Below, one piece after another: positions 3,498-63,828 of a stretch of 64,000 bases of DNA. A program made the translations under genes and the position numbers. The stretch comes from Nitrospirota bacterium (GTDB lineage Bacteria > Nitrospirota > Thermodesulfovibrionia > Thermodesulfovibrionales > Dissulfurispiraceae), in the NCBI GenBank assembly GCA_963790025.1, contig CAWBMP010000004.1, forward strand, positions 32,001-96,000, given 5' to 3'. The notes below the pieces were generated by a model that saw only the letters and a list, made by a program, of their open reading frames with translations, was not told the DNA's origin and did no database searches. Within the stretch, counting starts at the first letter, position 1. Each line of letters opens with the position of its first letter.

Positions 3498-3588
3498 GAG
3501 TGAATGAGTATATGGGTAAATGGGTGAATGGGTGAATGGGTAAGAAGACTTTTTATTACTCATCCACTCATACACTCATTTACCCATT
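3498..3588. repeat. Palindromic octamer micro-repeat (RGTRAATG)n ... complement
   Basis: agtgaatg agtatatg ggtaaatg ggtgaatg ggtgaatg ggtaa ... ttactcat ccactcat acactcat ttacccat; right arm overlaps the degP stop codon. Confidence 0.85.
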
Positions 3589-4701
3589 GAGCGATATATA
3601 AAATGTCTGTCCCTGCCTCTTTATTAAAAAGAGCAATGAGTTTCCATGCTCAGCCTTATTCAGGGCAGCATTAAAATCACGCGCATTATTGACCGGCAAG
3701 TGGTTCAGCTCTTTTATGATATCACCGGATTGCAAGCCAGCCTCATCGGCAGGGCTTCCTGGCACAACATCACCTACCAGTGCTCCCTCGCTCCCTTTTA
3801 ATCCAAAGGACTGGACCATGTCAAGCGATAGATTTTGAATGGAAACGCCTATCCATCCGCGGACCACTTTACCCTTGTCTTTCAGCTGAGAAATAATTGT
3901 TTTTACAACACTGCTGGGGATAGCAAAGCCTATACCCTGCCCTGAGGCCACAATAGCAGTATTGATGCCGATGACCTCCCCTTGCAAATTCACCAGCGGC
4001 CCGCCACTGTTGCCCGGGTTAATCGGCGCATCGGTTTGTATAAAATTATCGTAAAGGCCGGCGCCGATCACGCGGCCGGTTGCACTGATAATGCCCTGGG
4101 TGACCGTGTGTTCGAGACCGAAGGGGTTGCCGACGGCAAGCACCCAGTCGCCGACCCTCATTTTATCGGGATCTCCCAATGTGAGAGTCGGCATATCCCT
4201 GAAAAGTGAGGATATCTTTATAAGTGCAAGATCGGTTTTCTTGTCCCTGCCGATAACCTTGGCCTTAAATTCCCTTCCGTCGGAAAATTTCACTTTAATT
4301 TCTTCAGCCCCCTCAACGACATGATTATTCGTCATGATATAGCCTTCCTTATCAACGACAAACCCTGAGCCGAGGCTCTGCTGTTTCATCTCCCTGTCGG
4401 GGATATCGCCGTAATATTTCTTGAAAAAATCTCCAAACGGTCCTTCGTCCTCACGCCCGAAAAAATGCCTGAATGGATTGCCGGGGACCCTGACGGTTGA
4501 GGTCGTGCTTATATTTACAACCGCAGGACTGACTTTTGCCGCAACATCAGCGAAAGATTGCGGGAAGCCTATTACACTGCCAGGACCGCTTTGCACGTTT
4601 ACGCGCCCCATTTTTGAACCGATAAGAATTCCAATAGCAACCAGCAAAATGCCGCTTACAATTATTAGCACCACGAGCTTTCTTTGCATAATACCCCCCA
4701 A
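3580..4701 (-). CDS. Do/DegP-family serine endoprotease with one PDZ domain
   Basis: TNNHVV, DLALIK, INPGNSGGPL catalytic motifs; single PDZ. Confidence 0.93.
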   Translation of the reverse strand: MGGIMQRKLVVLIIVSGILLVAIGILIGSKMGRVNVQSGPGSVIGFPQSFADVAAKVSPAVVNISTTSTVRVPGNPFRHFFGREDEGPFGDFFKKYYGDIPDREMKQQSLGSGFVVDKEGYIMTNNHVVEGAEEIKVKFSDGREFKAKVIGRDKKTDLALIKISSLFRDMPTLTLGDPDKMRVGDWVLAVGNPFGLEHTVTQGIISATGRVIGAGLYDNFIQTDAPINPGNSGGPLVNLQGEVIGINTAIVASGQGIGFAIPSSVVKTIISQLKDKGKVVRGWIGVSIQNLSLDMVQSFGLKGSEGALVGDVVPGSPADEAGLQSGDIIKELNHLPVNNARDFNAALNKAEHGNSLLFLIKRQGQTFYISLNG

Positions 4702-4838
4702 AGGACGACACTATAAAATAATAGGAAATTATTGATAATTATTCAATAAGCGCCCGATCGCAACCAAACGCCCGTTACTTTTAAGGGCTATTATTGATAT
4801 ACTTAAACAGGAAACAGTTCATTTTGAAAGGTCAAAAA

Positions 4839-6953
4839 ATGACAGAGACAGTATCTCCTGTTTTTTTTCTCAGGCGACTGGCGATAGGTGTGCTGTTGGT
4901 CAACCTTTTCATAATTGCCCTGGCCGGTATTGCGATCCACCAGAGCCGTCTTCAGTATGAAGAGCGGGCCACGATTACAACCCGGAACCTGTCACAGGTT
5001 TTGGATGAGTACTTTAATGGAGTAATCGCCAAGATCGATGTGGCACTGCTGTCAGTGGTGGACGAAGCAGAGAAACAACTGGCACGCGGCGGCATTGATA
5101 GGCAGGCTATTAACTCATATATTATTCGACAGCAGGCACGCATCCCGGAACTATACGGTTTGCGGATGACCAATGCAAAGGGTGACGTCGCTTACGGGAT
5201 GGATTTGGCGCCGGGCGTAAACGTCGCTGACCGTGATTACTTTATCCGCCCGAGCAATGACTTGAAAGTAGGACTTTTCATATCCAAGCCGGTATTTGCC
5301 CGCACCACCGGAAAATGGGTGATCAATTTTGCCCGCCGTTTCAATCGCCCGGATGGTTCCTTCGCCGGAGTTGTATTCGGGATGATTACTCTGGAGGATT
5401 TTGCCAGGATGTTTTCCCGGATTAATGTCGGCAAACACGGGGCTATCATGTTGTTCGACAGTGATCTGGGTGTCATCGCCCGTTATCCGGAGCCTCAGGG
5501 AATAGGCAGCACCATCGGCAAGAAGTTCACATCAGCCGAGATCCGGGGATTGTTTGAAAGGAACCAAACTTCAGCAACGTATAGGGCCCATGGCACTATT
5601 GACGATATCGAGCGAATATTTTCCTATCGCAAGATTGCTGCCTATCCCCTCTATGTACAGGTCGGATTGGCCAAGAGCGACTATCTTGGGGAGTGGCATA
5701 ACGAAATTGTCAAGATGTTGGCCCTGGTGGCACTGTTTTTCCTGGTTGTGCTCTGTTTGGCATGGTTGCTCTACCGTTACATTACCGAACACAAGAAACT
5801 CGAAGCTCAACTCATTCAATCACAGAAAATGGAATCCGTAGGACTTCTTGCCGGTGGGATAGCCCACGACTTTAACAATATTTTGAGTGGGATGATGGGC
5901 TATGTGACACTGCTTCAGATGAAATCAAAAGAAGGCGACCCTGCAAGGCAATATTTGAACCAACTGCTTTCGCTTACGGAAAGAGCGGCAGCCCTTACCA
6001 GGAGTCTCCTGGCGTTCAGCAGGAAGCAGATACTGGACATAAGGCCGACAAATCTTAATGATATAGTCGGCATGGTTGGGAAACTCCTGTCCAGAGTGAT
6101 AGGTGAGGACATAGAGTTAAACCTGAAGCCTTCAGATAAGGATGTAGTGGTAAATGCTGATGCAGGGCAGATAGAGCAGGCCTTGATGAACCTTGCAACG
6201 AATGCCAGGGATGCCATGCCTGAAGGAGGCACATTGACCGTAAGCACGGGACCTTTTGAAATGGATAATCACTTCATAAACATGCATGGATATGGGAAGC
6301 CGGGTAAATATGCCCTTTTGATAGTACAGGACACCGGTATGGGAATAGATGAGGAGACAAGGAAGAAGATATTCGAACCCTTTTTTACCACCAAGGGAGC
6401 AGACAAAGGCACAGGACTTGGACTTGCGATGGTATACGGGACAATAAAGCAGCATGATGGATATATAAACGTTTATAGTGAAGAGGGCAAAGGGACAACA
6501 TTCAAAATTTATTTGCCGGCGATTGAGGCTGAAGCGGCGGAAGAAAAGACCGTGGACAACATCCCCCGGAGAGGCGGTACAGAGACAATACTATTGGTTG
6601 AAGATGAAGCATCATTGAGACAGGCGACAAGGAGCATACTGCAAGAATTCGGATATAGGGTAATAGAGGCGGAAGACGGGAATGACGCGGTGAACAAGTT
6701 CGCGGAACACAAGGCAGAGATCAAGCTTGTGTTAATGGATGTGATAATGCCGGGGAAAAGCGGCAAGGAGGCATATCAGGAGATGCAGAAAATACAGCCT
6801 GACGCGAAGGTCATATTCACCAGTGGGCATACAGGAGACATGCTGACAAGCAAGAAAATAGCTGAAGAAGGTTTACATTTTATTTCAAAGCCTGTTTCAC
6901 CAAGAGAGCTTTTCGAAAAAATCAGGGACGTGCTGGACAAAAGAAAAGATTGA
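4839..6953 (+). CDS. Hybrid sensor histidine kinase/response regulator with periplasmic dCache-like sensor
   Basis: Two TM helices; [11 protein letters not shown]-box, NARDAM, GTGLGL; C-terminal receiver (LMDVIMP); start placed at ATG 4839. Confidence 0.92.
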
Positions 6954-7136
6954 TCTTCTAACTATTCCTCCAGCCCTTTATTTTCTTCCCAGCCCTTACC
7001 GTAAATATACTTTTTACCATCCATCTCCACCTCGATGCGTCCGGAGCCGGTCCTTGGCCGCTCGGCAGGAGGGGAAAGCTGTTCGGCGGGGAGATCGAAA
7101 AGAAAGCTGCCCTTAAAACCGACAAAAAATGTTAAA

Positions 7137-7412: not shown

Positions 7413-7724
7413 TTATTCCGGCCACAGTCTGGCTCCATGAAAGATTCTCAGAATCTGAATAACATTATTCTTTACTCTGTACGGGATAATGTACGGGAGT
7501 CCTGAAATTACAATCTCCCTCGTTCCGTCTGCCCTTCCCAGCTTCCCCATATTTGGCTGGTCGCTCAAAAGTTGTACTTTTTTTTTAATATGCCGAGCAA
7601 CATCATTTGCCGCACGCGGATTGTCCTGCGCGATATAACGCCTGATTTCTATCAGATCCGATATTGCGTCCCCCGTCCATTTTATTTGCACTTCGGGACT
7701 TCCTTCTCTTTTCTTGATCCCCAT
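7413..7724 (-). CDS. RelE/ParE-family toxin (true start probably the GTG of VQIKW, ~7694)
   Basis: IKWTxxAxxDL...YIAQDNP...GRxxGTRE...PYIIPYRV...IQILRIFHGAR. Confidence 0.9.
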   Translation of the reverse strand: MGIKKREGSPEVQIKWTGDAISDLIEIRRYIAQDNPRAANDVARHIKKKVQLLSDQPNMGKLGRADGTREIVISGLPYIIPYRVKNNVIQILRIFHGARLWPE

Positions 7725-7951
7725 GTATCAAGCCATGAAGCGACTTTCTCATGGTCAACGAACTCAGCTCCGGGCTGGTCAGCCTTATGAATGGTTTTCA
7801 ATGTTTCCTGAATCTGCCACTCATTGATTGAAAGGAAATCCTGAATAGCGTTTGCCACAAGGTACGACTTACTGCGATCTGTTGCTTTTGCGAGTTTATC
7901 AAGTCTGTCTTTCGTTTGACTGTCAACCCTAATGGTTAATGTTGTGCTCAT
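7682..7951 (-). CDS. CopG/RHH antitoxin
   Basis: TLTIRV...RLDKLAKATDRSKSYL...EWQI; overlaps toxin; SD ggaggac. Confidence 0.88.
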   Translation of the reverse strand: MSTTLTIRVDSQTKDRLDKLAKATDRSKSYLVANAIQDFLSINEWQIQETLKTIHKADQPGAEFVDHEKVASWLDTWGSRKEKEVPKCK

Positions 7952-8060
7952 GTCTGTCCTCCTTTCGCCTTAGTTAATCACATTGTAACACATACAGCTA
8001 TTATGTGTACAAATGATATTCTTCTCCTCCTTGAATGTCAGATTAACGTTAAATGGCGTT

Positions 8061-8229
8061 AAATGGGACGGTTCTATTTTTCTTAATTTTTTTCCTTCCT
8101 GGGCCGCCCTTTCCTCCGTATAATCTCTTCAAGAGCAAATCTCTTCTGTAACATAGCTACGAAAGCCTCGTTCCCATATACTGCTTTCCGCTCCATTGCA
8201 CCTTTCATTGCCTCTTTTTCCGTAAGCAT
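8061..8229 (-). pseudogene. Repeat copy plus C-terminal fragment of RAYT-like transposase
   Basis: Repeat aaatgggacggttctatttt at 8061-8080; minus frame reads ...VYGNEAFVAMLQKRF...RRKGRPRKEKN* (GRPRK tail). Confidence 0.65.
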
Positions 8230-8271
8230 TCTATCCCTATCATCAGCGTGGTCATATGTATAAATAAAAAT

Positions 8272-8400
8272 AAATGGGACAGCCTGACGGTTCTATTTTC
8301 TTTTTTTGTCATTTCCCTTTGGTCTCTCTTTTGACTTTACCTCCCCCCCAACCTCAAACCTCTTCCCTACTTCCTCTATGAAATCTTTGCTTCCGTTTCT
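8272..8400 (-). pseudogene. Repeat copy (8-nt insertion) plus second degraded RAYT-like C-terminal fragment
   Basis: aaatgggac[agcctgac]ggttctattttc; minus frame GSKDFIEEVGKRFEV aligns with GNEAFVAMLQKRF of the previous fragment. Confidence 0.55.
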
Positions 8401-8458
8401 TGAAGTGGAAACGACAAACTGTCGGATGTCTGTCAGATCAAGTTTTGGCAACTACATT

Positions 8459-8737
8459 TTATCCAAACAAGTCTGAATGACTGCCGGTGCGGACAAAGGT
8501 AATCTCTCGCATATCTTCGTCCATCTTATAAGGCAATATCCAGTCCGGCTCTATATGGCAGTCTCTATGCTTTTTCAAATTACCAGCGAGGGAATAGTCA
8601 TGATATCTTCTTTCAAGGGGGAAGCTGTCGATAAGTTTTCGTACAACAGTCTTAAGTTTCTCCATGTCCTTATTGCCGGCCTTCTCAATTCTCTTGATGT
8701 CCTTTTTGAATTGTCTGCAATAGCGGGGTTTCAGCAT
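8459..8737 (-). CDS. yafQ: YafQ-family mRNA interferase toxin
   Basis: FKKD...RDCHIEPDW...RTGSHSDLF. Confidence 0.9.
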   Translation of the reverse strand: MLKPRYCRQFKKDIKRIEKAGNKDMEKLKTVVRKLIDSFPLERRYHDYSLAGNLKKHRDCHIEPDWILPYKMDEDMREITFVRTGSHSDLFG

Positions 8738-8739
8738 CC

Positions 8740-9000
8740 CTATATGCCCAGCTTTCTGAACATATCCTCAGCGTCCTGACATTCTGTAAGATCCCGTCTA
8801 TTTTCAGCGTCCCTCATAGCCCTCAGAGTGGTTTTGTTGGGTATTTTTACATCAAAAGGCAAACCCTTGCGCAGCCTCACCTGCGACAGAAACAAATTTA
8901 TTGCCTCTGTTGTGCTAATCCCCAGCTTGTGCAATACTCTTTCAGCATCAGTCTTTAACTCAGGGTCAACTCTCATCGTTATCATTGCTGTCTTTGCCAC
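8740..9000 (-). CDS. dinJ: RelB/DinJ-family antitoxin
   Basis: RVDPELKxxAExVLxxLG...AINLFL...GLPFDVKIPN. Confidence 0.9.
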   Translation of the reverse strand: MAKTAMITMRVDPELKTDAERVLHKLGISTTEAINLFLSQVRLRKGLPFDVKIPNKTTLRAMRDAENRRDLTECQDAEDMFRKLGI

Positions 9001-11251: not shown

Positions 11252-11262
11252 ATGGGTATTAA

Positions 11263-11315
11263 CAAAAACAAGGGGGACACTTCCCAAAATATGGGAAGTG
11301 TCCCCCTTGTTTTTG
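11263..11315. repeat. Perfect 24-bp-stem palindrome (REP-like; may also terminate the mla operon)
   Basis: caaaaacaagggggacacttccca-aaata-tgggaagtgtcccccttgtttttg. Confidence 0.85.
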
Positions 11316-11328
11316 TGCCCCTATTTTT

Positions 11329-16602: not shown

Positions 16603-16721
16603 TTCTGCGTCGCTATATGTTTGTGCAGACCTTCAACGATGATTTCCAAATCTGACTCGTCCAAGCAGGGGTAAAGGGGGCTTTGACGCACGATTTCAAG
16701 CAACTCCGTTTTGGTAATCAT
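16599..16721 (-). CDS. 40-aa small protein, tandem paralogue B (not in ORF track)
   Basis: MITKTELLEIVRQSPLYPCLDESDLEIIVEGLHKHIATQN*; ggatggtga SD-like sequence upstream. Confidence 0.55.
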   Translation of the reverse strand: MITKTELLEIVRQSPLYPCLDESDLEIIVEGLHKHIATQN

Positions 16722-19230: not shown

Positions 19231-19311
19231 AAAGCTAAGTGATAAGAGTCTCCAGCCCAGAGCTAAAAGATATTTCTTTTGCTCTTAGCTCTTGGCTCCG
19301 GTCCCTTAGCT
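19231..19311. repeat. Palindromic heptamer micro-repeat (AGCTAAG / CTTAGCT)
   Basis: aagctaagtgataagag...agagctaaaaga ... tcttttgctcttagctcttggct...cttagctt. Confidence 0.65.
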
Positions 19312-19324
19312 TGCCTTATTTAAC

Positions 19325-27334: not shown

Positions 27335-27345
27335 TTAAATAAAAC

Positions 27346-27484
27346 AGGCAAAGGCAGAGGTAAAGGTAAAGTAAAGTCAAAACACAAATAGAATTTATCT
27401 TTCTCTTTACATTTATTTTGCATCTTTGCCTGCATTTCCTTCCTTTTTACTTTTCTTTATTATTTATATCTATACCTTTGCCTG
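27346..27484. repeat. Palindromic hexamer micro-repeat (AGGYAA / TTRCCT)
   Basis: aggcaaaggcagaggtaaaggtaaag ... ctttgcctgc ... tatacctttgcct. Confidence 0.75.
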
Positions 27485-27488
27485 TATT

Positions 27489-28150: not shown

Positions 28151-28159
28151 AACGTCAAA

Positions 28160-28260
28160 ACGCGCACAGCATACAGCGTACAGCGTTCGGCGCCAAAGGA
28201 TAAGTGTTCATTATAAATTTGTTCATGTCTTTAACGCTGAACGCTCAACGCTGTAAGCGT
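28160..28260. repeat. Palindromic heptamer micro-repeat (CAGCGTA / AACGCTG)
   Basis: cagcatacagcgtacagcgttcggcg ... aacgctgaacgctcaacgctgtaagcgt; right arm encodes the FabD tail. Confidence 0.75.
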
Positions 28261-29166
28261 TTTTTCGAGGGTTTCCGTATCCCCTACATTGAATAGGCGA
28301 ACGGACGGATCTATCCTCTTGATCAATCCCGAAAGCACTTTGCCCGGCCCTGCCTCAATAAAAGTATCAATTCCCGACGATACCAGAACCTTAATACAAT
28401 CCTCCCATAAAACCGATTGGCTCAATTGTCTTACAAGTAACTGTCTTATTGCATCAGCGTCCGAAATAAACTGAGCCTCGGCATTATTGACAAAGGGTAT
28501 TCCGGCATTATTGACAGTTACCTCTTCGAGGACCTCCTCGAACCGCCTTCCTGCATCCTTCATCAGTCTGCAGTGTACGGGAACGCTTACTGTTAGAGGC
28601 ACTGCCCGTTTGGCGCCGTGTGCTTTGGCCCGCTCCATGGCGTCCTCAACAGCAGGGCGTTCGCCTGAGATGACAATCTGGGCTGGACAGTTATAGTTAG
28701 CCACTGCGACATAGCCCGAATCAACGGTCTTACAGATATTGTCAATAACCTTCCTGTCCAGTCCGAGGATTGCTGCCACAAGCCCCTTCCCTTCCGGGAC
28801 AGCCTCATGCATTATTTGGCCCCTCATCCCGGTCAGCCATACTGCATCCTCAAACGAGATGCTTCCGGCTGCCACAAGCGCTGAATATTCTCCGAGGCTG
28901 TGACCGGCCACTGAAGAGGGGTGGATATTTCTGGATTTTAAGACGGTATAAGAAGCTATGCTCGCCACAAGCAGGCAGGGCTGCGTCCTGTGCGTTTTAT
29001 TCAGTTCTTCAGCAGGCCCGTTAAAGCTCAAGCCGGCAACATCATAGTCGAGGACCGCGGATGCCGTCTCATACAGAATCTTCACCTCGTCGAAATTGTC
29101 ATAAAGGTCCTTACCCATGCCGACTTGCTGCGAACCCTGCCCGGGGAAAACAAAAGCTGTTTTCAT
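28231..29166 (-). CDS. fabD: Malonyl-CoA:ACP transacylase
   Basis: FPGQGSQ, GHSLGEY, GPGKVLSGL. Confidence 0.96.
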   Translation of the reverse strand: MKTAFVFPGQGSQQVGMGKDLYDNFDEVKILYETASAVLDYDVAGLSFNGPAEELNKTHRTQPCLLVASIASYTVLKSRNIHPSSVAGHSLGEYSALVAAGSISFEDAVWLTGMRGQIMHEAVPEGKGLVAAILGLDRKVIDNICKTVDSGYVAVANYNCPAQIVISGERPAVEDAMERAKAHGAKRAVPLTVSVPVHCRLMKDAGRRFEEVLEEVTVNNAGIPFVNNAEAQFISDADAIRQLLVRQLSQSVLWEDCIKVLVSSGIDTFIEAGPGKVLSGLIKRIDPSVRLFNVGDTETLEKTLTALSVQR

Positions 29167-34245: not shown

Positions 34246-34317
34246 TGACAGTGTCTGTGTCAGTGTCGGTGTCGGTTCATAGATTCCGTTATTGACACTA
34301 ACACTGTCACTGAAACT
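34246..34317. repeat. Palindromic hexamer micro-repeat (CAGTGT / ACACTG)
   Basis: cagtgtctgtgtcagtgtcggtgtcgg ... gacactaacactgtcactg, between two divergent TATAAT boxes. Confidence 0.75.
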
Positions 34318-34335: not shown

Positions 34336-34887
34336 ATGATGGATGTTATCGGTTTAATTGAAAAATATTACTCTCACGATTCGGAGGCCTATTTTCTCCT
34401 GGTCCACCATAGCAGACTTGTAGCGGAAAAAGCCCTTCAGGTGGCTGCACGGATTTCAATGCCCGTTCCTGATTTAACCTTTATCGAGGAAGCCGCCATG
34501 CTCCACGATATCGGCATTTTCATGACCGATGAGCCGCTTATAGGCTGTTACGGAACTCACCCCTACATAGCCCATGGCTGCCTGGGAAGAGATTTGCTGG
34601 AGAAGGAGGGCTTGCCGGCCCACGCTCTGGTGTGCGAAAGGCACGTCGGCACCGGATTGACATCCGCCGACATAGCGGAAGGCAACCTCCCCATTCCTAG
34701 AAGATCGATGAAGCCTGTGACACTGGAAGAACAAATTATCTGTTTCGCCGACAAATTCTATTCAAAAAAGAAAGACAGGCTCATGCACGAAAAACCTGTG
34801 GCTGAAATCCGAAAAGGTTTGGCCCGATACGGCAAAAGCAAACTGCAGCAATTCGATGAATGGCTGGTCCTGTTTAAAGAGAAGTAA
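34336..34887 (+). CDS. HD-domain phosphohydrolase
   Basis: HS...LHDIG...HG...RH...ADKF. Confidence 0.9.
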   Translation: MMDVIGLIEKYYSHDSEAYFLLVHHSRLVAEKALQVAARISMPVPDLTFIEEAAMLHDIGIFMTDEPLIGCYGTHPYIAHGCLGRDLLEKEGLPAHALVCERHVGTGLTSADIAEGNLPIPRRSMKPVTLEEQIICFADKFYSKKKDRLMHEKPVAEIRKGLARYGKSKLQQFDEWLVLFKEK

Positions 34888-34971
34888 AAAGTGAAAAGGT
34901 AAAAAAATTCAAGCTAAGAATTTAAAAAAGCCTTTCCTTTTGACTTTACTTTTAACTTATTACTTTTAACT
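34881..34971. repeat. Palindromic heptamer micro-repeat (AAGTAAA / TTTACTT)
   Basis: aagtaaaaagtgaaaaggtaaaa ... ttttgactttacttttaacttattacttttaact, between convergent genes. Confidence 0.65.
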
Positions 34972-36249
34972 TGTTTTTAATGCCCTTTCAACCGTCCTGA
35001 TGGCGCAAAACTCCCCGCACATGCTGCACACCTCTTTCTCGGCAGGCGGGACCTTGCCCCTCCACTCTCTCACCTTCTCAGGGTTTAAACTGAGAGATAT
35101 CTGTCCCTCCCAATTGAGGTCCTTTCTGAAACGGGCCATCTGCTTGTCTTTTTCCAGCGCACCGGGTACTCCTTTGGCAATATCCGCCGCATGTGCCGCT
35201 ATCTTCGACGCAATGACCCCTTCACGGACATCTTCGATGTCAGGCAGCCTTATGTGCTCAGCAGGAGTCACATAGCACAGGAAATCGGCCCCTGCGGCCC
35301 CTGCGATGGCGCCTCCTATCGCTGCAGCGATGTGATCGTATCCCATAGCAATATCCGTGACCAAAGGCCCGAGTACATAAAATGGCGCACCTTTGCAAAT
35401 CTCCTTCTGCAACTTGATATTCAGTTCCACCTGGTCCAGAGGCACATGACCCGGACCTTCTATAATGGTCTGCACGCCTGCTTCAAGCGCCCTGTCCCTC
35501 AATTCACCGAGCGTGACCAATTCCTCCAACTGGCTCCGGTCGGTTGCATCAGCAATACAGCCGGGCCGGAACCCATCTCCCAGGCTCAGGGTCAAATCAT
35601 ATTTTTTTGCCATTTCCAAAAGCCGGTCGTACTGTTCAAAGAGGGGGTTCTCCCTGTCATTCAAGATCATCCACTCAAGCAAAAAAGCTCCTCCCCTGCT
35701 GACCACGTCAAGTATACGTCTGTCCTCTCTTAACCGCTGTATGGCCTTCTGCGTGATGCCGCAGTGAACAGTAACAAAATCAACACCATCTTTAGCATGA
35801 TCTTCAATCACTCCGAAAAGGTCTTCCGGGTCCATCCTGGCAATATGGCCGCTGCTTTCGGCGGTTTTTACAATGGCCTCGTAGATCGGGACCGTGCCGA
35901 CCGCAACAGAAGATCGTTTCATTAGCGTCTGCCTTAAATCCTTTATAGCTCCGCCGGTTGAAAGGTCCATCACCGCGTCCGCACCATGTCTTATCAGCAC
36001 TTCGAGTTTTTGCAATTCCTCATCATAAGAAATCCTGTCTTTTGACGTGCCGATGTTTGCATTAATTTTTGTACGCATCCCCCGTCCGATGCCAAGAGGA
36101 AAAATATTGTGAAGCGCATTGCGGGTAATTACCGAAAAGCCTGAGGCAATATCTGTGGCGAGCCTCTCCGGTGCCATAGACTCAGTACGTGCCACCATCG
36201 CCATTTCATCGGTAATAATGCCTTTTCTTGCCTGCTCTATTCTTGTCAT
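34966..36249 (-). CDS. thiC: Phosphomethylpyrimidine synthase
   Basis: TKINANIG, MDLSTG, SRGG, EGPGH, CSMCGEFC. Confidence 0.96.
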   Translation of the reverse strand: MTRIEQARKGIITDEMAMVARTESMAPERLATDIASGFSVITRNALHNIFPLGIGRGMRTKINANIGTSKDRISYDEELQKLEVLIRHGADAVMDLSTGGAIKDLRQTLMKRSSVAVGTVPIYEAIVKTAESSGHIARMDPEDLFGVIEDHAKDGVDFVTVHCGITQKAIQRLREDRRILDVVSRGGAFLLEWMILNDRENPLFEQYDRLLEMAKKYDLTLSLGDGFRPGCIADATDRSQLEELVTLGELRDRALEAGVQTIIEGPGHVPLDQVELNIKLQKEICKGAPFYVLGPLVTDIAMGYDHIAAAIGGAIAGAAGADFLCYVTPAEHIRLPDIEDVREGVIASKIAAHAADIAKGVPGALEKDKQMARFRKDLNWEGQISLSLNPEKVREWRGKVPPAEKEVCSMCGEFCAIRTVERALKTS

Positions 36250-36265: not shown

Positions 36266-36354
36266 AAGTAAGGTAAAAGTCGAGGCAGAGGTAATGAAAA
36301 AACAACAAAAAAGCTTTGTTTTAATCTATACCTATACCTTTACCTCTGCCTCGC
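36266..36354. repeat. Palindromic hexamer micro-repeat (AGGYAR / YTRCCT)
   Basis: aaggtaaaagtcgaggcagaggta ... tatacctatacctttacctctgcctcg; encodes the ThiE tail. Confidence 0.75.
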
Positions 36355-41888: not shown

Positions 41889-41992
41889 TGCGTTATATCC
41901 TACTCCGTTCAGCGCTAAAAAATCAACATCATGAAATCTTTCAATAACTTTTCGTTCTTACGCTGAACGCACAACGCAGTACGCTGTACGTT
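41889..41992. repeat. Palindromic heptamer micro-repeat (CAGCGT / ACGCTG type)
   Basis: ccgttcagcgct ... tacgctgaacgcacaacgcagtacgctgtacg. Confidence 0.6.
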
Positions 41993-49138: not shown

Positions 49139-50349
49139 ATTAGCACCAGATCTGCCTTGAGACTTCCGGCAGCCTTGATGGCTTGCAGTATTGCTACAAG
49201 ATCCCTGGGAGTAACGCCCAGGGCATTCAATCCCTTCACAAGCTCTCCGATAGTAGAGCCTTTTACCTGCACTAAATTCGTCTTTTTTTCCTCGACAGTT
49301 ACCTGTTTTTGAGGTATAACGACAGTCTTCGCACCTGCCGGCGCAAAGGGAGGAGGCTGTGAAACCTGATAATCCGTGTTAATTACTATGGTCAGTGAGC
49401 CGTGAGCGAGAGCAACAGGGCTGATCGTAACATTTTCTCCGATAACAACAGTACCGGTCCGCTCATTAATGATCACCCTGGCAGGGGTGTCTATAGTAAC
49501 ATTCAGCATTTCGACAGTTGAGATCAGGTCCACTACTTTATCGGCAAAGGCGTCAGGGACAATCAACGACACCTCTGATGGCCCTTCGGCTTTTGCAAAA
49601 ATACCTCCGAGGTGCTCATTAATTTTATTGGCAACCCTGGTAGCAGTTTCGAAATCCTGCATGTTAAGCAAAAGATCAAGACTGTTCCTCCGGTTTAACT
49701 GCACAGGAACCTCTCTTTCAACTATGGCGCCGTTAGGCACTGTTCCGACATTAGGATGGTTCTTAATCGTCTGTGTGCCGCCGCCCCCAGCCAAAAAACC
49801 TCCGATTGATACTGGTCCCTGTGCCACCGCATAGACATTATCATCAAGTCCCTTGAGAGGGGCTGCCAGAAGCGTCCCTCCCTGCAAACTCGATGAATCC
49901 CCGATCGAAGAGACCTGGACGTCGATTTTTCCGCCGGGCATGATCATCGTGGGAAGCTTCGCCGTAACAATGACCGCAGCAACATTCTTGGTTTTACCTT
50001 TTACATCGCCGGGGTTCACATTAATACCCATCTTGGCAAGCATATTGGCAACGGGCTGATAATAATATGTTCCGTCCCTGTCTCCCGTTCCGTGAAGACC
50101 CACAACAAGACCATATCCGATAAGATCATTCTCCCTCACGCCTGAAAATGCAGCTATGTCCTTTATACGCTCAGCATATGCTTCAGTAGGAAAAAAGCAT
50201 GAAAAACAAATTGTTAATGACAAAAGGCTAAAGGGCAAAGACCGTAATAGAGATAGACTTCTTAATGTTTTCCTGATCGAACCTTTAGCCTTCAGCCATT
50301 CGTCTTTTGCCGATTTATATATGAACATCTGCTTTTTACCACCCTTCAT
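49135..50349 (-). CDS. flgI: Flagellar P-ring protein (start uncertain: 50349 or 50328)
   Basis: ERIKDI, GYGLVVGLxGTGD, SLQGGTLL, INERTGT, ILQAIKAAG. Confidence 0.95.
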   Translation of the reverse strand: MKGGKKQMFIYKSAKDEWLKAKGSIRKTLRSLSLLRSLPFSLLSLTICFSCFFPTEAYAERIKDIAAFSGVRENDLIGYGLVVGLHGTGDRDGTYYYQPVANMLAKMGINVNPGDVKGKTKNVAAVIVTAKLPTMIMPGGKIDVQVSSIGDSSSLQGGTLLAAPLKGLDDNVYAVAQGPVSIGGFLAGGGGTQTIKNHPNVGTVPNGAIVEREVPVQLNRRNSLDLLLNMQDFETATRVANKINEHLGGIFAKAEGPSEVSLIVPDAFADKVVDLISTVEMLNVTIDTPARVIINERTGTVVIGENVTISPVALAHGSLTIVINTDYQVSQPPPFAPAGAKTVVIPQKQVTVEEKKTNLVQVKGSTIGELVKGLNALGVTPRDLVAILQAIKAAGSLKADLVLM

Positions 50350-50390
50350 AATGTCTTCCTTTAACCTTTTACCTTTAACTATTTGTTTTA
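50221..50390. repeat. Heptamer micro-repeat palindrome (AAAGGYT / ARCCTTT) in the flgI 5' region
   Basis: aaaaggctaaagggcaaag ... acctttagccttcagccattcg ... cctttaaccttttacctttaac. Confidence 0.7.
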
Positions 50391-50399: not shown

Positions 50400-51152
50400 T
50401 CAGAACGGCCAAACTTTGTCCATTACGTTTAATAGCCAGCCTTGTGACTGCTTGTTATCAAGCTCGCCTTCACCAACTATGTATATCTTGGCGTCGGCCA
50501 CCTGCTGGGAAGCGATTGTATTAATAGCAGAGATATCCTCCGGCCGTATTATGCCCCGCACAACTATGATCTCCTTATCATTATTTATTATTGTTTCTTT
50601 TCTGGATTCGAGCACCAGGTTCCCGTTAGGAAGCACTTCTATCACCTTCGCGCCAATCGAAGCGGTAATAGTTCCTGTTCTTGCAGTGTCACCCTCCCCT
50701 TTCAAAGAAGTAGTTCCAGATCCCGAAAGACCGGTCTGCAGGTTCTTTACCGGGAATGAATAACCGGCCAGTCCCAAAGCGTTCGTCATGCTGTCGTTAA
50801 CAGAAGATGCGCGGCTGCTGTTCGTTGTCGCCTTATTTTGTGCTGTCGTAGTTTCAGTGATAAGAATGGTAACGATGTCATTAACCCGCCTCGCTCGCTG
50901 GTCTTCATAGAGCGACGCCCTGTCGGCCCAAAGAGAGCCTTCGCCTGTGTATGATTCTTTTTCTTTTGTGTGAACGTATTTTGGAGGCATGGGCTCATCC
51001 TTGATCTCACGCGCCTCCTTCAAACCGGAACAACCAAAAAGCAACAGAAGGCTAAAGGTTAAGGGTATAAGGTGAAAGGGAAAACAAACTTCCCTTCCAT
51101 ATTTCGCCTTTTGTCTTTTCTCTTCTGTTATTAACCTTTTACCTTTCACCAT
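50400..51152 (-). CDS. flgH: Flagellar L-ring lipoprotein
   Basis: Lipobox LFGC; GSLW, DQRARRVND, LPNGNL, QGWL...WPF. Confidence 0.94.
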   Translation of the reverse strand: MVKGKRLITEEKRQKAKYGREVCFPFHLIPLTFSLLLLFGCSGLKEAREIKDEPMPPKYVHTKEKESYTGEGSLWADRASLYEDQRARRVNDIVTILITETTTAQNKATTNSSRASSVNDSMTNALGLAGYSFPVKNLQTGLSGSGTTSLKGEGDTARTGTITASIGAKVIEVLPNGNLVLESRKETIINNDKEIIVVRGIIRPEDISAINTIASQQVADAKIYIVGEGELDNKQSQGWLLNVMDKVWPF

Positions 51153-51157
51153 TGACC
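51048..51157. repeat. Heptamer micro-repeat palindrome encoding the FlgH signal peptide
   Basis: aaggctaaaggttaagggtataaggtgaaaggg ... ttaaccttttacctttcaccattgacc. Confidence 0.75.
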
Positions 51158-51166
51158 TTCCACCTT

Positions 51167-51991
51167 TCATATTTTTACTTTTACTGTATCCGCCGAGACA
51201 AGTATTCCGCTGACCTCTTTCTTTTTAGAATCAAGAAGGACCCGTGCCACCCCGCCCACTACGGCATCATGATTCAGCACCCCTCGTGTAGAAATCTGCA
51301 TGCTTGCTCCTTCGACAAGAACTATTACTTCCCGGCCCTTTTTAATGTTCGATGTGTTGATAAAATTGTCAGACCGAAGTATTACGCCCTGCGCAATATT
51401 AGACTTAAGTTTCCTGCCTTTGATCTCACTTATATCAGTTATCGCACCCGACGGCAGTCTTGAATTCTTTTGTTTCACGGTATAGACATCCTCTTCAGTA
51501 ATGATCGTGTTGCTCGATATGGGCTTTGCAGCAACAAAAATATCTGTAAGGACGTCATATGCCGCTTCCACCCGCACTTTGAAAACCATTTGCCTGTCGT
51601 CATAAAGAGACACCAGATAGACGATTTTATTGCGGCCATTATATCCGTCCATTGCTATATTACGAACCGTGTAACTTTTGTCTTCATCCAGAGTGTCAAG
51701 GCCTTTTAGAATTCTTATTCCGTCAAGCTCAACGTTTGCAGAGACGGTGCGTACGAGCTCGGTCATAACAGCTTGCTTTATTGTGTCCATAACTTGCGGC
51801 CTGGCAGCAGCCAGAACAACAGCAGGCAGAAAAAAAGTAAGCAGTAAGCAGAAGGCAGTATGCAGAAAAATAGCAGGCCGTAGGGAGTAAGTAGTACGAA
51901 ACAAAGAAGAAAAAGAAGAATCTCGGATTCCCTGCTGCGCGGGAATGACAGTCAAACGTTTTTCAAAACTTTTGACGAGCTCGACCTTCAT
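51167..51991 (-). CDS. flgA: P-ring chaperone FlgA
   Basis: SAF-like C-terminal domain; between flgG and flgH; SD aaggag before ATG 51991. Confidence 0.85.
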   Translation of the reverse strand: MKVELVKSFEKRLTVIPAQQGIRDSSFSSLFRTTYSLRPAIFLHTAFCLLLTFFLPAVVLAAARPQVMDTIKQAVMTELVRTVSANVELDGIRILKGLDTLDEDKSYTVRNIAMDGYNGRNKIVYLVSLYDDRQMVFKVRVEAAYDVLTDIFVAAKPISSNTIITEEDVYTVKQKNSRLPSGAITDISEIKGRKLKSNIAQGVILRSDNFINTSNIKKGREVIVLVEGASMQISTRGVLNHDAVVGGVARVLLDSKKKEVSGILVSADTVKVKI

Positions 51992-52068
51992 CGGTTATTC
52001 TCCTTTTTCCCTGCTTCTTACTGTCTCTTGCCTTCTGCTTACGGCTCACTACTTACCGGCTTCTGCTT
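51836..52068. repeat. Heptamer palindrome (GCAGTAA / TTACTGC) spanning the flgA start, with nested REP-like half at 51925-51949
   Basis: agtaagcagtaagcagaaggcagtatgcag ... cttactgtctcttgccttctgcttac...; internal ggattccctgctgcgcgggaatgac. Confidence 0.75.
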
Positions 52069-52076
52069 ATTTTTTT

Positions 52077-52884: not shown

Positions 52885-52983
52885 AACGGCAAAAGGGTAA
52901 AGGCCAAAGGAAACAGATAAGAAATAAACATCAAAAATCTTCCACTTCTTCCGCCTTTAGCCATCAGCCCTTTGCCCTTTGCG
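52885..52983. repeat. Palindromic heptamer micro-repeat (AAAGGGC / GCCCTTT)
   Basis: ggcaaaagggtaaaggccaaagg ... gcctttagccatcagccctttgccctttg. Confidence 0.75.
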
Positions 52984-54238: not shown

Positions 54239-55079
54239 CTACAGCAAATTAGTTCTTTGCTCCGCATGACAGTGCTTCAGCCTTTCCTGCAATGAGTTAA
54301 ACTGTGTTGTCGTCAGCCCAAGCTGCTCAAAGCCAATTTGGCTAAAATCTATTGCAGTACGCATCCCTATTCCCATGTGCAGACACATCGCATCGGCTAC
54401 CTGAACAATCTGGCACATAGTCTCGTAGCCGCTGTCTTGAAAGGCAGGATACTGTTCAGCATGATGGTATTCAATTACCGCCTCAAGGTTCCGCGGCAGC
54501 TTCCACTTCCTGGCAATAAGCGCCCCGACATTGCAGTGATTGAATCCCAAAATTTCATCCTCGGCAACAATAGAGTTAAGTTTCTCCTGATCAACCTTTT
54601 TTATAACAGCTTTGTATTGCTCAGGCAGACTATTGTTGATAACGATCTTTCCCATATCATGTATGAGACCGCCGATCAGCGCCTCTTCCGGTATCAGCAT
54701 CCCGGTCTCAGCCGCCAGGAGTGCCGCCGCAATAGACACACCGAGGCTGTGCTCCCAATGCTGCTGCTCGAATAGTCCGAATTTCCTGTGGAGAATCTTT
54801 TAGTGAGGCAGCCGCCACCAGAGACTTCATTGAACTAAAGCCGATAAGAATTATAGCCGTGGAAATAGTATCAATCCCCCTGCCGCGGCCGTAATATGGC
54901 GAATTGGCTATTCTCAAGAGACGGGTCGAAAACGATTCATCCTGGGAGATAATCTCTTCCAGCTGATTGATGGAAGTAAAATCACTGCTGACAAGCTGAA
55001 GAACTTTTGATGCCACAGGAGGCAGACTCGGGACATCGACGGTTTCAAGAATAATCTTTTCCAGCACGTCTTCTTTCAT
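54239..55079 (-). pseudogene. HDOD-domain protein with a single +1 frameshift near 54794 (real or sequencing error)
   Basis: PSLP...LRIANSPYY...IGF in one frame; WEHS...GLIHDMGK...HCNVG...WKLP...HH in the next; removing one base restores LKDLHRKFGLFEQQHWEHS. Confidence 0.85.
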
Positions 55080-55102
55080 CAGCTCTCCATTGGTTGTTTA
55101 TA

Positions 55103-55134
55103 AGTATATGAGTGCACCCATTTACTCATACACT
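55103..55134. repeat. Minimal octamer palindrome of the 3498-3588 type
   Basis: agtatatgagtg-cacccatttactcatacact, overlapping the cheB stop codon. Confidence 0.5.
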
Positions 55135-57381: not shown

Positions 57382-57459
57382 TACGTCTACAGCGTACTGC
57401 GTTAAAAACCTAAAACCAGTCTTTAAAACACAGAACGCCGAACGCAGTACTCATACCGC
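57382..57459. repeat. Palindromic heptamer micro-repeat (AGCGT / ACGC type)
   Basis: cagcgtactgcgtt ... aacgccgaacgcagtac. Confidence 0.6.
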
Positions 57460-57469: not shown

Positions 57470-59260
57470 TCAAGCGGTCTTATTCGTAAAAATACTGCGC
57501 GAAAACACTGCAAGATCAAGAATGAGCACGACTCTGCCATCGCCGGTGATTGTGGCGCCCAATATGCCGCACTCTTCAGATTCTATGCCATTGATGGTCT
57601 TAATCACAATTTCTTCCTGTCCGAGCAATTCGTCAACAGCGATGCAGAACCGCCTGTCTCCGACGATCGCGACAAGCACATATGTATGGTCACTGCTCTC
57701 TTTTTTTATGTTCCGCACCGCGAGAACAGCAGACATGTCGAACATCGGGATGACCCTGCCTCTTATAGTCAGCACCTTTTGCCCTGTTATGTCCTTGACA
57801 TCGCTTTTTTTGATCCTGAATGTTTCTTCTATCATGGATTGCGGGACAGCGTAATACTCATCGCCGACCCTGACCATCATGGCCTGCAAAATTGCAAGTG
57901 TGAGCGGCAAACTTATCTTAAAGGTGGTCCCGATATCTTTTTGGGTAATAACTTCAACATAGCCGTTCAGTTTCCCTACGTTAGTTTTAACTACATCCAT
58001 TCCTACCCCACGGCCGCTCAATTCAGTAGAAACCTCTTTTGTCGAGAATCCTGGAAGGAATATAAGGTTTATTGCCGTGTCGTCAGACATCTTCTGTGAC
58101 TCTTCTTCGGATATGAGCCCCTTCGACAACGCCTTCTTCTTTACCGCATTAACATCTATCCCTTTGCCGTCATCCGATACTTCAATAACAATCTGCGTAC
58201 CTCTTTGGTAGGCGCTGAGAATGATCCTGCCCCTTTTGGGCTTGCCTTTAAGTTCTCTTTCAGCAGAAAACTCGATCGCGTGGTCTATGGAATTCCTGAT
58301 GATATGCACGAGAGGGTCGCCGATATTCTCTATAACGGTTTTATCGACCTCCGTATCCTCGCCAAACATCTCCAGATCTATGTCCTTGCCCAGTGTTCGG
58401 GACATATCTCTCACCATTCTGGGGAACTTGCCGAAGACCTTCTGAATAGGCTGCATCCTCATCTTCATAACGGCAAGTTGCAGGTCTGAAGTGACTCTAT
58501 CCAGAAAACCCGTAGTCTCGACCAGGCCTTCCACATAGGGGTCATCAGAATAATTTATATCGAGCTTGGTTGCAAGATTAAGGAGCCTGTTCCGGGCAAG
58601 AACTATCTCTCCGGCAAGGTCCATCACTTTATCAATTCTCGATATATCAACCCTCAGGTGAGAGACGACTTCCCTTTCCTTCGCCATCTCTTCAGCGACA
58701 GAGGAAGGTCCAACGGCAGGTGAAGGTATAGGTTTAGGTTTAGATTCAGGTTCAGATTCGGGTTCATTTGTTTGCTCTGCCTCTGCCTCTTTTTCGGGCT
58801 CTGCCTCAACCTTTACTTCTGCTTCTACTTTTGTTTTTGGCTCTGCCTCTGCCTTTACCTCTGCCTGTGGTTTCGCCGACTCGGAAGCCTTGTCCAGTTC
58901 TGCAAGCAGCGTTGAAATGTCTTCCTCAATGCCATCTTTAATTTTTATATGGAAAATAAGGAGCCGTAAGGTATCGACACTCTTAAGGATGACATCCATT
59001 AATTCCATCGAAAGGGCAATCTCGGCATCCCGGACCCTTTTCATGATGCTTTCGGCCCTGTGGGCAACATCGACTATCGGCTGAAATCCGAGGAACCCCG
59101 CAGCACCTTTAAGCGTATGCATGCCGCGGAATATCTCGTTGATCATGTCTTTATCGTATCCCTTTGTTTCCAGCTCGACAAACATGGGATCGATTCTTTC
59201 GAGCGTTTCCGAAGCTTCGGTAACGAACTCGTCTATTATTTCTTCCATCTCATCAGCCAT
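57470..59260 (-). CDS. cheA: Chemotaxis kinase CheA (no evident P2 domain)
   Basis: Hpt (FRGMHTLKG), dimerisation domain, HATPase (RNSIDH, SGRGVGMDVV), CheW-like P5. Confidence 0.96.
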   Translation of the reverse strand: MADEMEEIIDEFVTEASETLERIDPMFVELETKGYDKDMINEIFRGMHTLKGAAGFLGFQPIVDVAHRAESIMKRVRDAEIALSMELMDVILKSVDTLRLLIFHIKIKDGIEEDISTLLAELDKASESAKPQAEVKAEAEPKTKVEAEVKVEAEPEKEAEAEQTNEPESEPESKPKPIPSPAVGPSSVAEEMAKEREVVSHLRVDISRIDKVMDLAGEIVLARNRLLNLATKLDINYSDDPYVEGLVETTGFLDRVTSDLQLAVMKMRMQPIQKVFGKFPRMVRDMSRTLGKDIDLEMFGEDTEVDKTVIENIGDPLVHIIRNSIDHAIEFSAERELKGKPKRGRIILSAYQRGTQIVIEVSDDGKGIDVNAVKKKALSKGLISEEESQKMSDDTAINLIFLPGFSTKEVSTELSGRGVGMDVVKTNVGKLNGYVEVITQKDIGTTFKISLPLTLAILQAMMVRVGDEYYAVPQSMIEETFRIKKSDVKDITGQKVLTIRGRVIPMFDMSAVLAVRNIKKESSDHTYVLVAIVGDRRFCIAVDELLGQEEIVIKTINGIESEECGILGATITGDGRVVLILDLAVFSRSIFTNKTA

Positions 59261-60063: not shown

Positions 60064-60232
60064 AAAGGCAGACAAAGATTAAGGCAGAGGTAAAGACAAA
60101 CGAAAAGCAAAGTGAAAAAACCCCATCTCTTAATTCCACGCGCCTTTCTATCTTCATCTTACCTTCATCATTTTGTTCTTGCCTTTATTTTTCTCTACCG
60201 CTGCCTCTGCCCTTACCTTTACCTCTGCCTTT
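60064..60232. repeat. Palindromic hexamer micro-repeat (AGGYAR / YTRCCT)
   Basis: aaggcagacaaagattaaggcagaggtaaag ... ctgcctctgcccttacctttacctctgcct. Confidence 0.78.
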
Positions 60233-62911: not shown

Positions 62912-63009
62912 GCAATCAGCCTCCGTATGAAGATCAATTATCGAATATTATAGTATATATATAAGGAAACATAAGAGCAAGAGCGAACAAGGTATCAGGT
63001 TGACCTTCT

Positions 63010-63732
63010 TTATTTGAAGTCTTCCATAACAGACCGGAGCTTCAAAAGGGCCTTGCCGTGCAGTTGGCAAACTCTAGACTCGCTTATTTCAAGGACTTTT
63101 CCTATTTCCTTCATAGTGAGCTCTTCGTAATAATAGAGGGTAAGCACAAGCCTTTCTTTTTCCGGCAGTGCGTCGATGGAGCTGCCGAGGACTGATCGTA
63201 ATTCCTTCAGATTCAGTTCATCGACAATGTCCCTGTCGTTTCTGTCAGAGATACATTCCAGTATATCCAGAGACTCACCTTCCTTATTTGTCATTCCAAG
63301 GTCCTCGAGTTTTATCATGCGCATGGTATTGGCAGTAGATAATGTCTTGTAAAGATCATCCATGGATATATTCAACCTTTCGGCAACTTCCTCATCACTC
63401 GCACTGCGGTTCAGCTCCTTCTCCAGCGATGCATAAGCGTGTTTCGTCTCATCCAATTTTTTTCTGGCATCTTTCGATCCCCACTGCATGGACCTGATTT
63501 CGTCAATAATGGCGCCCCGTATCCTGAAATCCGCAAAAGTGCTCAAACTGGCATTCAAAGAGGGTTTATACCGTTCTATTGCCTCAAGCAGCCCTATTAT
63601 TCCAGCAGACACCAGGTCTTCAATGCTTAATTCCGGCGGCAGATAAAAACCATACCTGGAAGCATAGTACTTTACTCTAGGCAGAAATTTCTCGACTATC
63701 TCTTCCTTTTCCTTCTCAGATACATTTCCCAT
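63010..63732 (-). CDS. fliA: Flagellar sigma factor FliA (sigma28)
   Basis: DLVSAGIIGL, RIRGAIIDEIR, LYYYEELTMKEIG...SESRVCQLH. Confidence 0.96.
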   Translation of the reverse strand: MGNVSEKEKEEIVEKFLPRVKYYASRYGFYLPPELSIEDLVSAGIIGLLEAIERYKPSLNASLSTFADFRIRGAIIDEIRSMQWGSKDARKKLDETKHAYASLEKELNRSASDEEVAERLNISMDDLYKTLSTANTMRMIKLEDLGMTNKEGESLDILECISDRNDRDIVDELNLKELRSVLGSSIDALPEKERLVLTLYYYEELTMKEIGKVLEISESRVCQLHGKALLKLRSVMEDFK

Positions 63733-63744
63733 AAATCCCCCAAG

Positions 63745-63828
63745 AAGCAGGCAAAGGTAAAGGTAAAGGTAAAGAAAAGACTAAAGACATTAAATAAGAA
63801 AAACTCTACCTTTACCTTTGCCTCCACC
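63745..63828. repeat. Palindromic hexamer micro-repeat (AGGTAA / TTACCT)
   Basis: aggcaaaggtaaaggtaaaggtaaag ... ctacctttacctttgcctcc. Confidence 0.8.

Follow-up and report, generated by a model that had tools for sequence, protein, structure and literature searches.

The 64,000-nucleotide stretch considered here (the window, G000:C4:32001-96000) lies on contig C4 of the genome of a sediment bacterium of the Nitrospirota (G000; 3.45 Mb, 5 contigs, 98.8% complete). It carries a series of tandem-repeat (TR) palindromes, in which a degenerate array of a short unit is followed by an A/T-rich spacer and then by an array of the complementary unit. The best explanation for these sites is that they are copies of a genome-wide palindrome class, about 180-225 copies in this genome, which resembles the short tandemly repeated repetitive (STRR) sequences of cyanobacteria. 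The same class is also the best explanation for the insert without an open reading frame (ORF) in the 23S rRNA genes and for the arms that enclose, or box, genes of the PF05635 family. The palindromes have one architecture in common, they occur in filled, decayed and empty states, they differ between genomes as whole blocks, and they are present in rRNA. With a probability of roughly 55%, we take them to be insertion-type hairpin elements akin to intervening sequences, most of them without an ORF.

Hairpins were collected with a gapless scan (at least 14 pairs, loop of at most 120 nt, overlapping results merged), which gives 593 of them genome-wide, the 5' arm being purine-rich in 284 and pyrimidine-rich in 79. 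The arms are periodic (arm periodicity of at least 0.6) in 225 of the 593, and these comprise 178 purine-5' hairpins (more than 60% purine in the 5' arm), 17 pyrimidine-5' hairpins (less than 40%) and 30 mixed ones. Contig C2 has 141 hairpins, of which 39 are both periodic and purine-5', while five dinucleotide shuffles of this contig in 150-nt blocks yield 38-50 hairpins and only 0-3 of that kind. An earlier note on this DNA had staked its proposal on such an enrichment over shuffled controls, and the enrichment is indeed there.

An independent test was made with Tandem Repeats Finder (TRF), which reports 806 arrays of period 6-9 genome-wide. Neighbouring arrays no more than 120 nt from each other form 55 pairs with complementary units and only 2 with the same orientation. 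The order is purine-then-pyrimidine in 50 of the 55 pairs and mixed in 5, and the reverse order does not occur. The suggestion that the A/G-rich arm lies on the 5' side is therefore correct in that the polarity is clearly non-random (178 against 17 in the hairpin scan, 50 against 0 with TRF), but it fails for the CAGCGTA and CAGTGT families, to which the rule is not applicable because they have no purine bias.

The arm period in the 178 purine-5' periodic hairpins is 7 nt in 96 cases, 6 nt in 39, 8 nt in 25 and 9 nt in 13. The median arm is 23 nt long and the median loop 42 nt, compared to 3-8 nt for the loop of classical terminators; the loops are 65% A+T. About ten unit families recur throughout the genome, namely AGGYAR, AAGTAAA, GCAGTAA, GGCAATA, AAAGGCT, GAGGTTA, AATGGGTR, CACAGAGR, CAGCGTA and CAGAAGA, and they are shared within the genus. 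Contrary to what had been supposed from the window, the units are thus not freely interchangeable.

The positions of the hairpins relative to genes rest on crude longest-ORF calls made for this analysis. With these, 136 of the 178 copies have an ORF of 100 aa or more stopping beside an arm; 135 of 168 such stops end at most 20 nt from where the arm begins, and 71 of the 168 lie inside it. The gaps that contain purine-5' hairpins are 63 of 295 convergent, 117 of 1011 co-directional and 23 of 391 divergent ones. Many copies are directly followed by the ribosome-binding site of the next gene. On the plus strand, 57 of the 178 copies have a T-tract after an arm, and on the minus strand 63 of the 178; at random places the figure is 54-55 per 1000, and part of the excess is due to the repeat itself.

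The same palindromes are found in rRNA. In both 23S genes of G000 (C2:708506-711534 and C4:1569694-1572722), a 6-nt hairpin loop is replaced by 109 nt, at a helix tip around positions 283-288 of the Rfam large-subunit (LSU) model, and this insert is an AGGTTA/AGGTAR palindrome without an ORF. In the relatives (denoted by the other G numbers), 9 of 13 copies of this helix tip clearly exceed the basal form (95-169 nt), those of G002, G003, G004 (both copies), G006, G007, G015, G016 and G022. Plain tandem-unit arms, from three unit families, are seen in G002, G003, G004a, G004b and G006, the two rRNA operons of G004 differing from each other with inserts from different families. The tips of G007 and G015 are more degenerate, and those of G016 and G022 have no clear tandem units. 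The basal helix of 34-37 nt, with no insert, is present in G001, G018 and G027, and G021 has a 107-nt stretch with no clear tandem units. Since the purine-then-pyrimidine order is found in the rRNA inserts too, the polarity is intrinsic to the element and not imposed by local translation. Judged from the sequence, the 23S rRNA is probably either fragmented at the insert or carries it as an expansion segment.

PF05635, the Avd-like four-helix-bundle family also named '23S rRNA intervening-sequence protein', is represented by two genes in G000, and both of them lie between TR arms and outside rRNA. One of these boxed genes encodes 121 aa (E 6.8e-36) and is enclosed by a distant arm pair. In addition, the 95-nt spacer of a GGCAATA-type palindrome contains a remnant corresponding to the first 32 residues of a PF05635 protein (E 5e-8), and the same junction in G009 has an intact boxed PF05635 gene. 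The remnant search was done with a hidden Markov model (HMM) of 23 PF05635 proteins against six-frame translations of the 593 hairpins and of the whole genome, and no decayed cassettes beyond the two genes and this one remnant were obtained. In the relatives, flanking inverted arms (score of at least 12) are present at 24 of 30 PF05635 loci, compared to 9 of 180 mismatched-flank controls. At 20 of the 30 loci the periodicity is at least 0.6 as well, and of the 24 loci with arms, 21 have a purine-rich left one.

The idea of a traffic of small-gene cassettes, put forward in the earlier note, is accordingly borne out to the extent that both PF05635 genes and the remnant are boxed, but it covers only 3 of about 200 palindromes. 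Two other candidate small genes, GxxExxY (PF13366) and DUF559 (PF04480), are not found in this genome at all. The comparison of junctions with relatives that had been recommended gave a positive answer at three junctions, where a gene lies between the arms in one genome and an empty hairpin is found in another. At ugd/manC, the site is filled in G000, with empty hairpins in G004, G006 and G002; at the junction of manC with the next gene, it is filled in G000 and empty in G006, the unit family being identical; and at flgI/flgH, a filled cassette is found in G015. At two further sites, filled in G002 and G010, respectively, the orthologous G000 genes abut with no arms, which means that the arms and the gene differ as one block.

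Similar partners exist for only 57 of the 376 loops of at least 25 nt, mostly in other, non-tandem palindrome families, and the TR hairpins are thus not whole-copy repeats. This agrees with the view that they do not fit ordinary whole-element copying of the type known for insertion sequences (IS) or repetitive extragenic palindromic (REP) elements, as does the fact that none of the 11 Y1-transposase ORFs of the genome is flanked by them. At the one filled-versus-empty boundary clean enough to be read, there is no target-site duplication. Miniature inverted-repeat transposable elements were considered as well, but the palindromes do not match them, given the unshared internal sequence and the missing duplication at that boundary.

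We have also examined whether the two arms of a hairpin match each other better than arms swapped within the same family. Windows of 21 and 28 nt were used, the 14-nt window being saturated, with 45-46 hairpins. The scores for same-hairpin and swapped arms were found to be 18.22 and 17.95 with the 21-nt window (p 0.27), and 22.67 and 22.45 with the 28-nt window (p 0.37), that is, the test gives no signal of hairpin-specific compensatory pairing. The complementarity stems therefore from both arms being arrays of one unit, and not from a mirror-image origin or from compensatory change. On the transcribed strand of co-directional junctions, G-U and A-C mismatches are 95 and 91, respectively, so that no bias signal is seen here either.

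We now come to the window itself, where about 16 sites had been described as sharing one layout. Clear TR palindromes are found at 13 of them, and the remaining three (19231, 41889 and 55103) are marginal. According to the ORFs and a Pfam scan, 13 of the 16 lie in co-directional gaps, 1 in a convergent gap, 1 in a divergent gap and 1 between a tRNA and a gene, in agreement with the statement that many are located at gene junctions within operons. Each of the 14 sites short enough to fold was compared to 200 dinucleotide shuffles. Long hairpins are predicted at 13 of these 14, with z-scores from -2.6 to -6.2, the exception being 34878-34975 with a z of -0.55. The sites are as follows.

3500..3590: TR palindrome of 8-nt units AATGGGTR/AATGAGTR, 29/35 paired, loop 6 nt, overlapping the stop of an HtrA-like protease gene (3580-4701, minus strand); z -6.1.
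19231..19312: hairpin with dispersed AGCTAAG units, from a tRNA gene (19328-19417, minus strand) to the start of a DUF2155 gene, marginal tandem character; z -3.4.
27341..27488: TR palindrome of AGGYAR hexamers, loop about 104 nt, ubiD/ndk junction; z -4.2.
28157..28263: TR palindrome of CAGCGTA heptamers without purine bias, overlapping the fabD stop at 28231; z -4.7.
34246..34312: TR palindrome of CAGTGT hexamers, at the divergent starts of a ribonucleotide reductase gene and an HD-domain gene; z -5.4.
34881..34972: TR palindrome of AAGTAAA heptamers, between the convergent HD-domain gene and thiC, weak predicted fold; z -0.55.
36266..36353: TR palindrome of AGGCAG/AGGTAA hexamers, thiE/thiC junction, one arm containing the thiE stop (36340-36342) and the thiC ribosome-binding site coming after the other arm; z -5.0.
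41889..41990: marginal, asymmetric hairpin at the csrA/fliW junction, with a 3' arm of ACGCWGW units and a single complementary unit as the 5' arm, which is not purine-rich; z -3.2.
50216..50379: TR palindrome of AAAGGCT heptamers (50216-50300) with an extra CCTTTAA array (50358-50379), flgH/flgI junction; z -3.0.
51054..51167: TR palindrome of AAAGGTK heptamers, flgA/flgH junction; z -2.6.
51836..52069: GCAGTAA heptamer arms 171 nt apart, the spacer holding the flgA ribosome-binding site and start.
52885..52982: TR palindrome of AAAGGSY heptamers, from the flgF stop to the flgG ribosome-binding site; z -4.3.
55101..55134: marginal, short 11-bp hairpin with one AATGAGTR-type unit per arm, cheB/HDOD junction; z -3.3.
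57382..57450: hairpin with CAGCGTA-type units, from the cheA stop to the cheW-cheZ start; z -4.3.
60064..60230: TR palindrome of AGGCAGA/AGGTAA-type units, loop about 100 nt, cheR/cheY junction.
63745..63823: TR palindrome of AGGTAA hexamers, 19/20 paired, loop 35 nt, directly upstream of the fliA ribosome-binding site; z -6.2.

The gene content around these sites is that of an ordinary chromosome, with a thiamine operon downstream of a thiamine pyrophosphate (TPP) riboswitch, flgFGAHI, csrA-fliW, a che operon, fliA, ndk, fabD and the ribonucleotide reductase gene, and most of the genes are on the minus strand. The riboswitch (78 bits, 38016-38122, minus strand) is upstream of thiG-thiE-thiC, the operon with the hairpin at its thiE/thiC junction. 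A scan of the window at the Rfam gathering threshold gave nothing besides this riboswitch and one tRNA. The HDOD-domain gene next to the short hairpin at 55101 (54239-55079, minus strand) is frameshifted, either truly or by an assembly error, into two overlapping ORFs, 54708-55079 covering profile positions 1-86 and 54239-54739 covering positions 103-195. Short contigs from two DNA runs were also inspected and list no unit-length indels; those of X1, possibly the source sample of the genome, are identical to it where they overlap.

The region is syntenic in genomes of the same genus, with about 70-85% identity. Comparison of 12 window junctions in 5 congeners shows that the hairpins are sporadic outside the flg genes and that the unit family often differs where a hairpin is present, many of the orthologous gaps being only 3-45 nt long and hairpin-free. 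At flgI/flgH, a TR hairpin is found in all 6 of the 6 genomes compared. At the cheW-cheZ/cheA junction, where G000 has a TR hairpin, G004 (contig C6) has a 570-nt insertion, an IS200-type transposase by the look of its reading frame, with identical 21-nt palindromes on either side.

Some further features of the window and the genome can be mentioned here. A perfect 25-bp hairpin with a 5-nt loop and flanking A- and T-tracts (11262-11316) resembles a classical bidirectional terminator, which indicates that ordinary terminators are used by this genome too. Adjoining type II toxin-antitoxin pairs, ParE with a ribbon-helix-helix partner and YafQ with RelB, are found at 7413-9000 on the minus strand, and the prmA/ychF gap contains two tandem copies of a 120-nt unit with 80% identity (16632-16867). 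The imperfect 6- and 12-nt tandem repeats at 58724-58866, within the coding region of cheA, probably reflect a repetitive linker rather than a hairpin element. Elsewhere in the genome, there are two dispersed palindrome families of the conventional kind, one with 12 copies and the other with 8, whose members share internal sequence (e.g. C4:452192 and C4:832247; C5:247740 and C4:1299577). Most of the 11 Y1-transposase ORFs (PF01797) are about 320 aa long, and together with the dispersed palindromes they resemble a separate REP/IS200-type system.

The arms differ markedly in what they can encode. Of the 178 copies, 153 have a purine arm with a stop codon in one frame or more, and 101 have a pyrimidine arm free of stops. 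Whatever the frame, translation of a pyrimidine arm yields chiefly L, F, P, S, T and Y, and that of a purine arm K, R and G. In flgI, flgH and flgA, the pyrimidine arm on the mRNA side constitutes the hydrophobic core of the signal peptide (50200-50300, 51054-51167 and 51836-51991, respectively), the purine arm contributing part of the coding for the charged start. At 51054..51167, both the K/G-rich beginning of FlgH and its hydrophobic lipoprotein signal are read from the arms on the mRNA strand, and there the 3' arm of 51836..52069 falls in the signal-peptide region of flgA. The FlgI signal peptide derives from a pyrimidine arm in most of 11 genomes compared and also in G015, and in one congener it is spelled by five copies of one heptamer. 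From its translation, an in-frame TR palindrome thus looks like a ready-made signal peptide, and the flg junctions may keep their hairpins because the arms encode signal peptides.

Considering the palindromes as insertion-type elements, copies would be gained and lost where a long protruding stem is harmless, that is, in gaps between a stop codon and a ribosome-binding site, in convergent gaps and at an rRNA helix tip. The genome has a gene for ribonuclease III (RNase III), and the transcribed stems of 14-47 bp may be cut by this enzyme in the same way as the stems of intervening sequences. Such cuts would divide or insulate operon transcripts. The minority of copies with flanking T-tracts may in addition attenuate transcription, some arms have been taken over as coding sequence, and most copies are probably near-neutral passengers.

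It has to be stressed that several observations weigh against this reading. Since PF05635 sequence is present in only 3 of about 200 palindromes, descent from a cassette is seen for one copy only. Complementary TRF pairs at a distance of 121-1000 nt are few, 5 in total, one of them the filled cassette, and no decay series from filled to empty is thus seen. The loops are unrelated, so there is no trace of recent copy-and-paste. Also, TR hairpins occupy the flg junctions of G005, an 81% complete genome in which the search for PF05635 genes came up empty. The retention of hairpins at flgI/flgH, and likewise the excess of T-tracts after the arms, fit selected RNA structures as well. Finally, the co-occurrence of PF05635 with the palindromes, measured as purine-5' periodic hairpins per sampled sequence, can only be regarded as a lead and not as a statistical test, since the compared genomes are kin and the observations are not independent; moreover, one of the genomes, G025, departs from the pattern. 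The values are the following.

G000: PF05635 present with TR arms; 8-14 per 200 kb.
G002: PF05635 present with TR arms; 25 per 200 kb.
G016: PF05635 present with TR arms; 7 per 200 kb.
G024: no PF05635 found; 1 per 200 kb.
G027: no PF05635 found; 4 per 200 kb (A/T low-complexity arms).
G017: no PF05635 found; 0 per 77 kb.
G018: no PF05635 found; 1 per 100 kb.
G012: no PF05635 found; 0 per 57 kb.
G025: 6 PF05635 matches, 2/2 sampled loci armless; 0 per 100 kb.

One alternative is that the palindromes are home-grown RNA structures, i.e. terminators, attenuators or stabilisers of mRNA 3' ends, selected at gene ends. They would then have grown in place by slippage, template switching would keep the arms complementary, there would be no mobility, and the PF05635 genes would have settled in existing loops. 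The tight coupling to stop codons and the depletion at divergent gaps speak for this, as do the approximately six-fold enrichment of T-tracts, the predicted folds at the window sites, which at 13 of 14 are far better than those of the shuffles, and the hairpins at flgI/flgH in all 6 genomes. The occurrence of different unit families at one junction, depending on the species, would also be expected for a conserved structure with free sequence. However, an rRNA helix tip also holds such palindromes, although termination and translation are irrelevant in that place, and they vary there between species and between the two operons of G004. Furthermore, swapping arms within a unit family costs no complementarity, the two kinds of mismatch are equally frequent on the transcribed strand, orthologous junctions outside the flg genes are often hairpin-free, the arms and the gene are jointly absent at two orthologous sites, and the median loop is far above that of classical terminators. 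All in all, we consider this alternative to be rather unlikely. Spreading by the Y1 transposases of the genome (of the IS200 or REP-associated tyrosine transposase, RAYT, type), in the manner of REP elements or bacterial interspersed mosaic elements (BIMEs), can be envisaged given the 11 PF01797 ORFs, the location of REPs at gene 3' ends within operons and the IS200-like insertion at the cheW/cheA junction of one congener. Here, though, a purine-5' TR palindrome is found within 400 nt of 0/11 Y1 ORFs, with another hairpin near 2/11, and there is no conserved REP-type sequence, the arms being arrays from about ten families. As the genome has separate dispersed palindrome families of the conventional kind, we give this possibility very little credence.

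Another scenario is that the arms are written anew on each side of a DNA break or insertion, by an enzyme adding short repeats to 3' ends from a template, similar to a telomerase or a reverse transcriptase, with the Avd-like protein as cofactor. This would fit with the absolute and intrinsic polarity, which includes rRNA and in which the purine-rich strand runs 5' to 3' toward the centre, with the two arms being independent arrays of one unit family rather than mirror copies, with the unit length of 6-8 nt, and with the likeness of PF05635 to the reverse-transcriptase cofactor Avd noted in PMC10053308. On the other hand, the reverse-transcriptase family RVT_1 (PF00078) was not found in the 98.8% complete genome, no candidate template or enzyme was identified, and slippage within the arrays would equally erase a mirror order, which together make this scenario improbable. 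A role at the DNA level, in which cruciforms, G-quadruplexes or triplexes would shape supercoiling, replication or recombination, could account for the mismatches showing no transcription-strand asymmetry, and it has a parallel in the paired GGGAATC arrays of Xanthomonas, which are studied as quadruplex formers in PMC4692102. Yet most units here have no G-runs and the positions are tied to transcribed features, i.e. gene ends and rRNA helix tips, so that such a role must be judged very improbable. A paper on intrastrand triplexes (PMC4666352) is not relevant here, to judge from its abstract. Finally, the insertion-type reading can be widened to a single mobile-element system without a recognisable transposase, comprising the TR palindromes, the ORF-less rRNA intervening sequences and the boxed PF05635 genes. 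The Avd-like protein would act in trans, as RAYT does for REPs, and the arms would be laid anew as templated-unit arrays flanking each insertion. One system of this kind would explain the absolute polarity, the lack of mirror order between the arms and the unrelated loops, but as a whole the proposal is speculative and, in our opinion, unlikely.

Among known systems, REPs and BIMEs consist of hundreds of short palindromes at gene 3' ends in operons, with a gene flanked by inverted copies. The palindromes described here differ from REP/RAYT in having no conserved palindrome and in having tandem-array arms, in that the boxed gene encodes a four-helix bundle, and in that 0/11 Y1 ORFs are flanked. 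The cyanobacterial STRR heptamers, named from the start as a partial analogue, turn out to be a good one, with tandem units of about 7 nt, inverted pairing, several families and a preference for gene ends in common. According to PMC2670836, STRR sequences (e.g. in the hupS-hupL spacer) are likewise intergenic, including within operons, and fold into hairpins, and their proposed roles are in transcript stability, translational coupling and termination. Unlike them, the present elements are found in a Nitrospirota host, use hexamers and octamers besides heptamers, follow a strict purine-then-pyrimidine polarity, are present in 23S rRNA and have arms that box PF05635 genes.

The Xanthomonas GGGAATC arrays (Rehm et al. 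2015; PMC4692102) form 70-75 inverted pairs per genome and are similarly enriched between co-directional ORFs and at distances of up to 50 bp from stops, and rarer between divergent ORFs. In that case, however, there is one G-rich unit, read as a quadruplex former, whereas here there are about ten mostly A/G-rich units without G-runs. The TAACTGA repeats of Beggiatoaceae are also intergenic heptamer arrays overlapping ORF ends, with stops in all three frames, but according to PMC4679880 they comprise one unit in direct repeats (1 inverted in 170 sets), mostly just upstream of starts. The 23S intervening sequences (PMC4990558, abstract) are inserts at a helix tip whose inverted repeats form a long stem, in some cases with a PF05635 ORF, and both 23S genes of this genome hold an insert of that type built as a TR palindrome. 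The intervening sequence of Coxiella in that work carries an ORF, is called a selfish element and is excised by RNase III; the abstract mentions no tandem-repeat arms. The 16 window copies, by contrast, are between protein-coding genes, outside rRNA. A search of the literature, mostly outside subscription journals and without supplements, gave nothing that links TR hairpins, intervening sequences and PF05635, and no paper on tandem-repeat stem-loops in Nitrospirae was found there.

STRR-type repeats, rRNA intervening sequences and the common four-helix-bundle genes have all been known for decades and are unexplained. In this genome, all three share one architecture, which means that the origin of the repeats becomes a testable question on a single element family. 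For annotation, the results imply about 200 junctions within operons with long stems, which may cut or insulate transcripts, and three flagellar genes whose signal peptides are now encoded by repeat arms.

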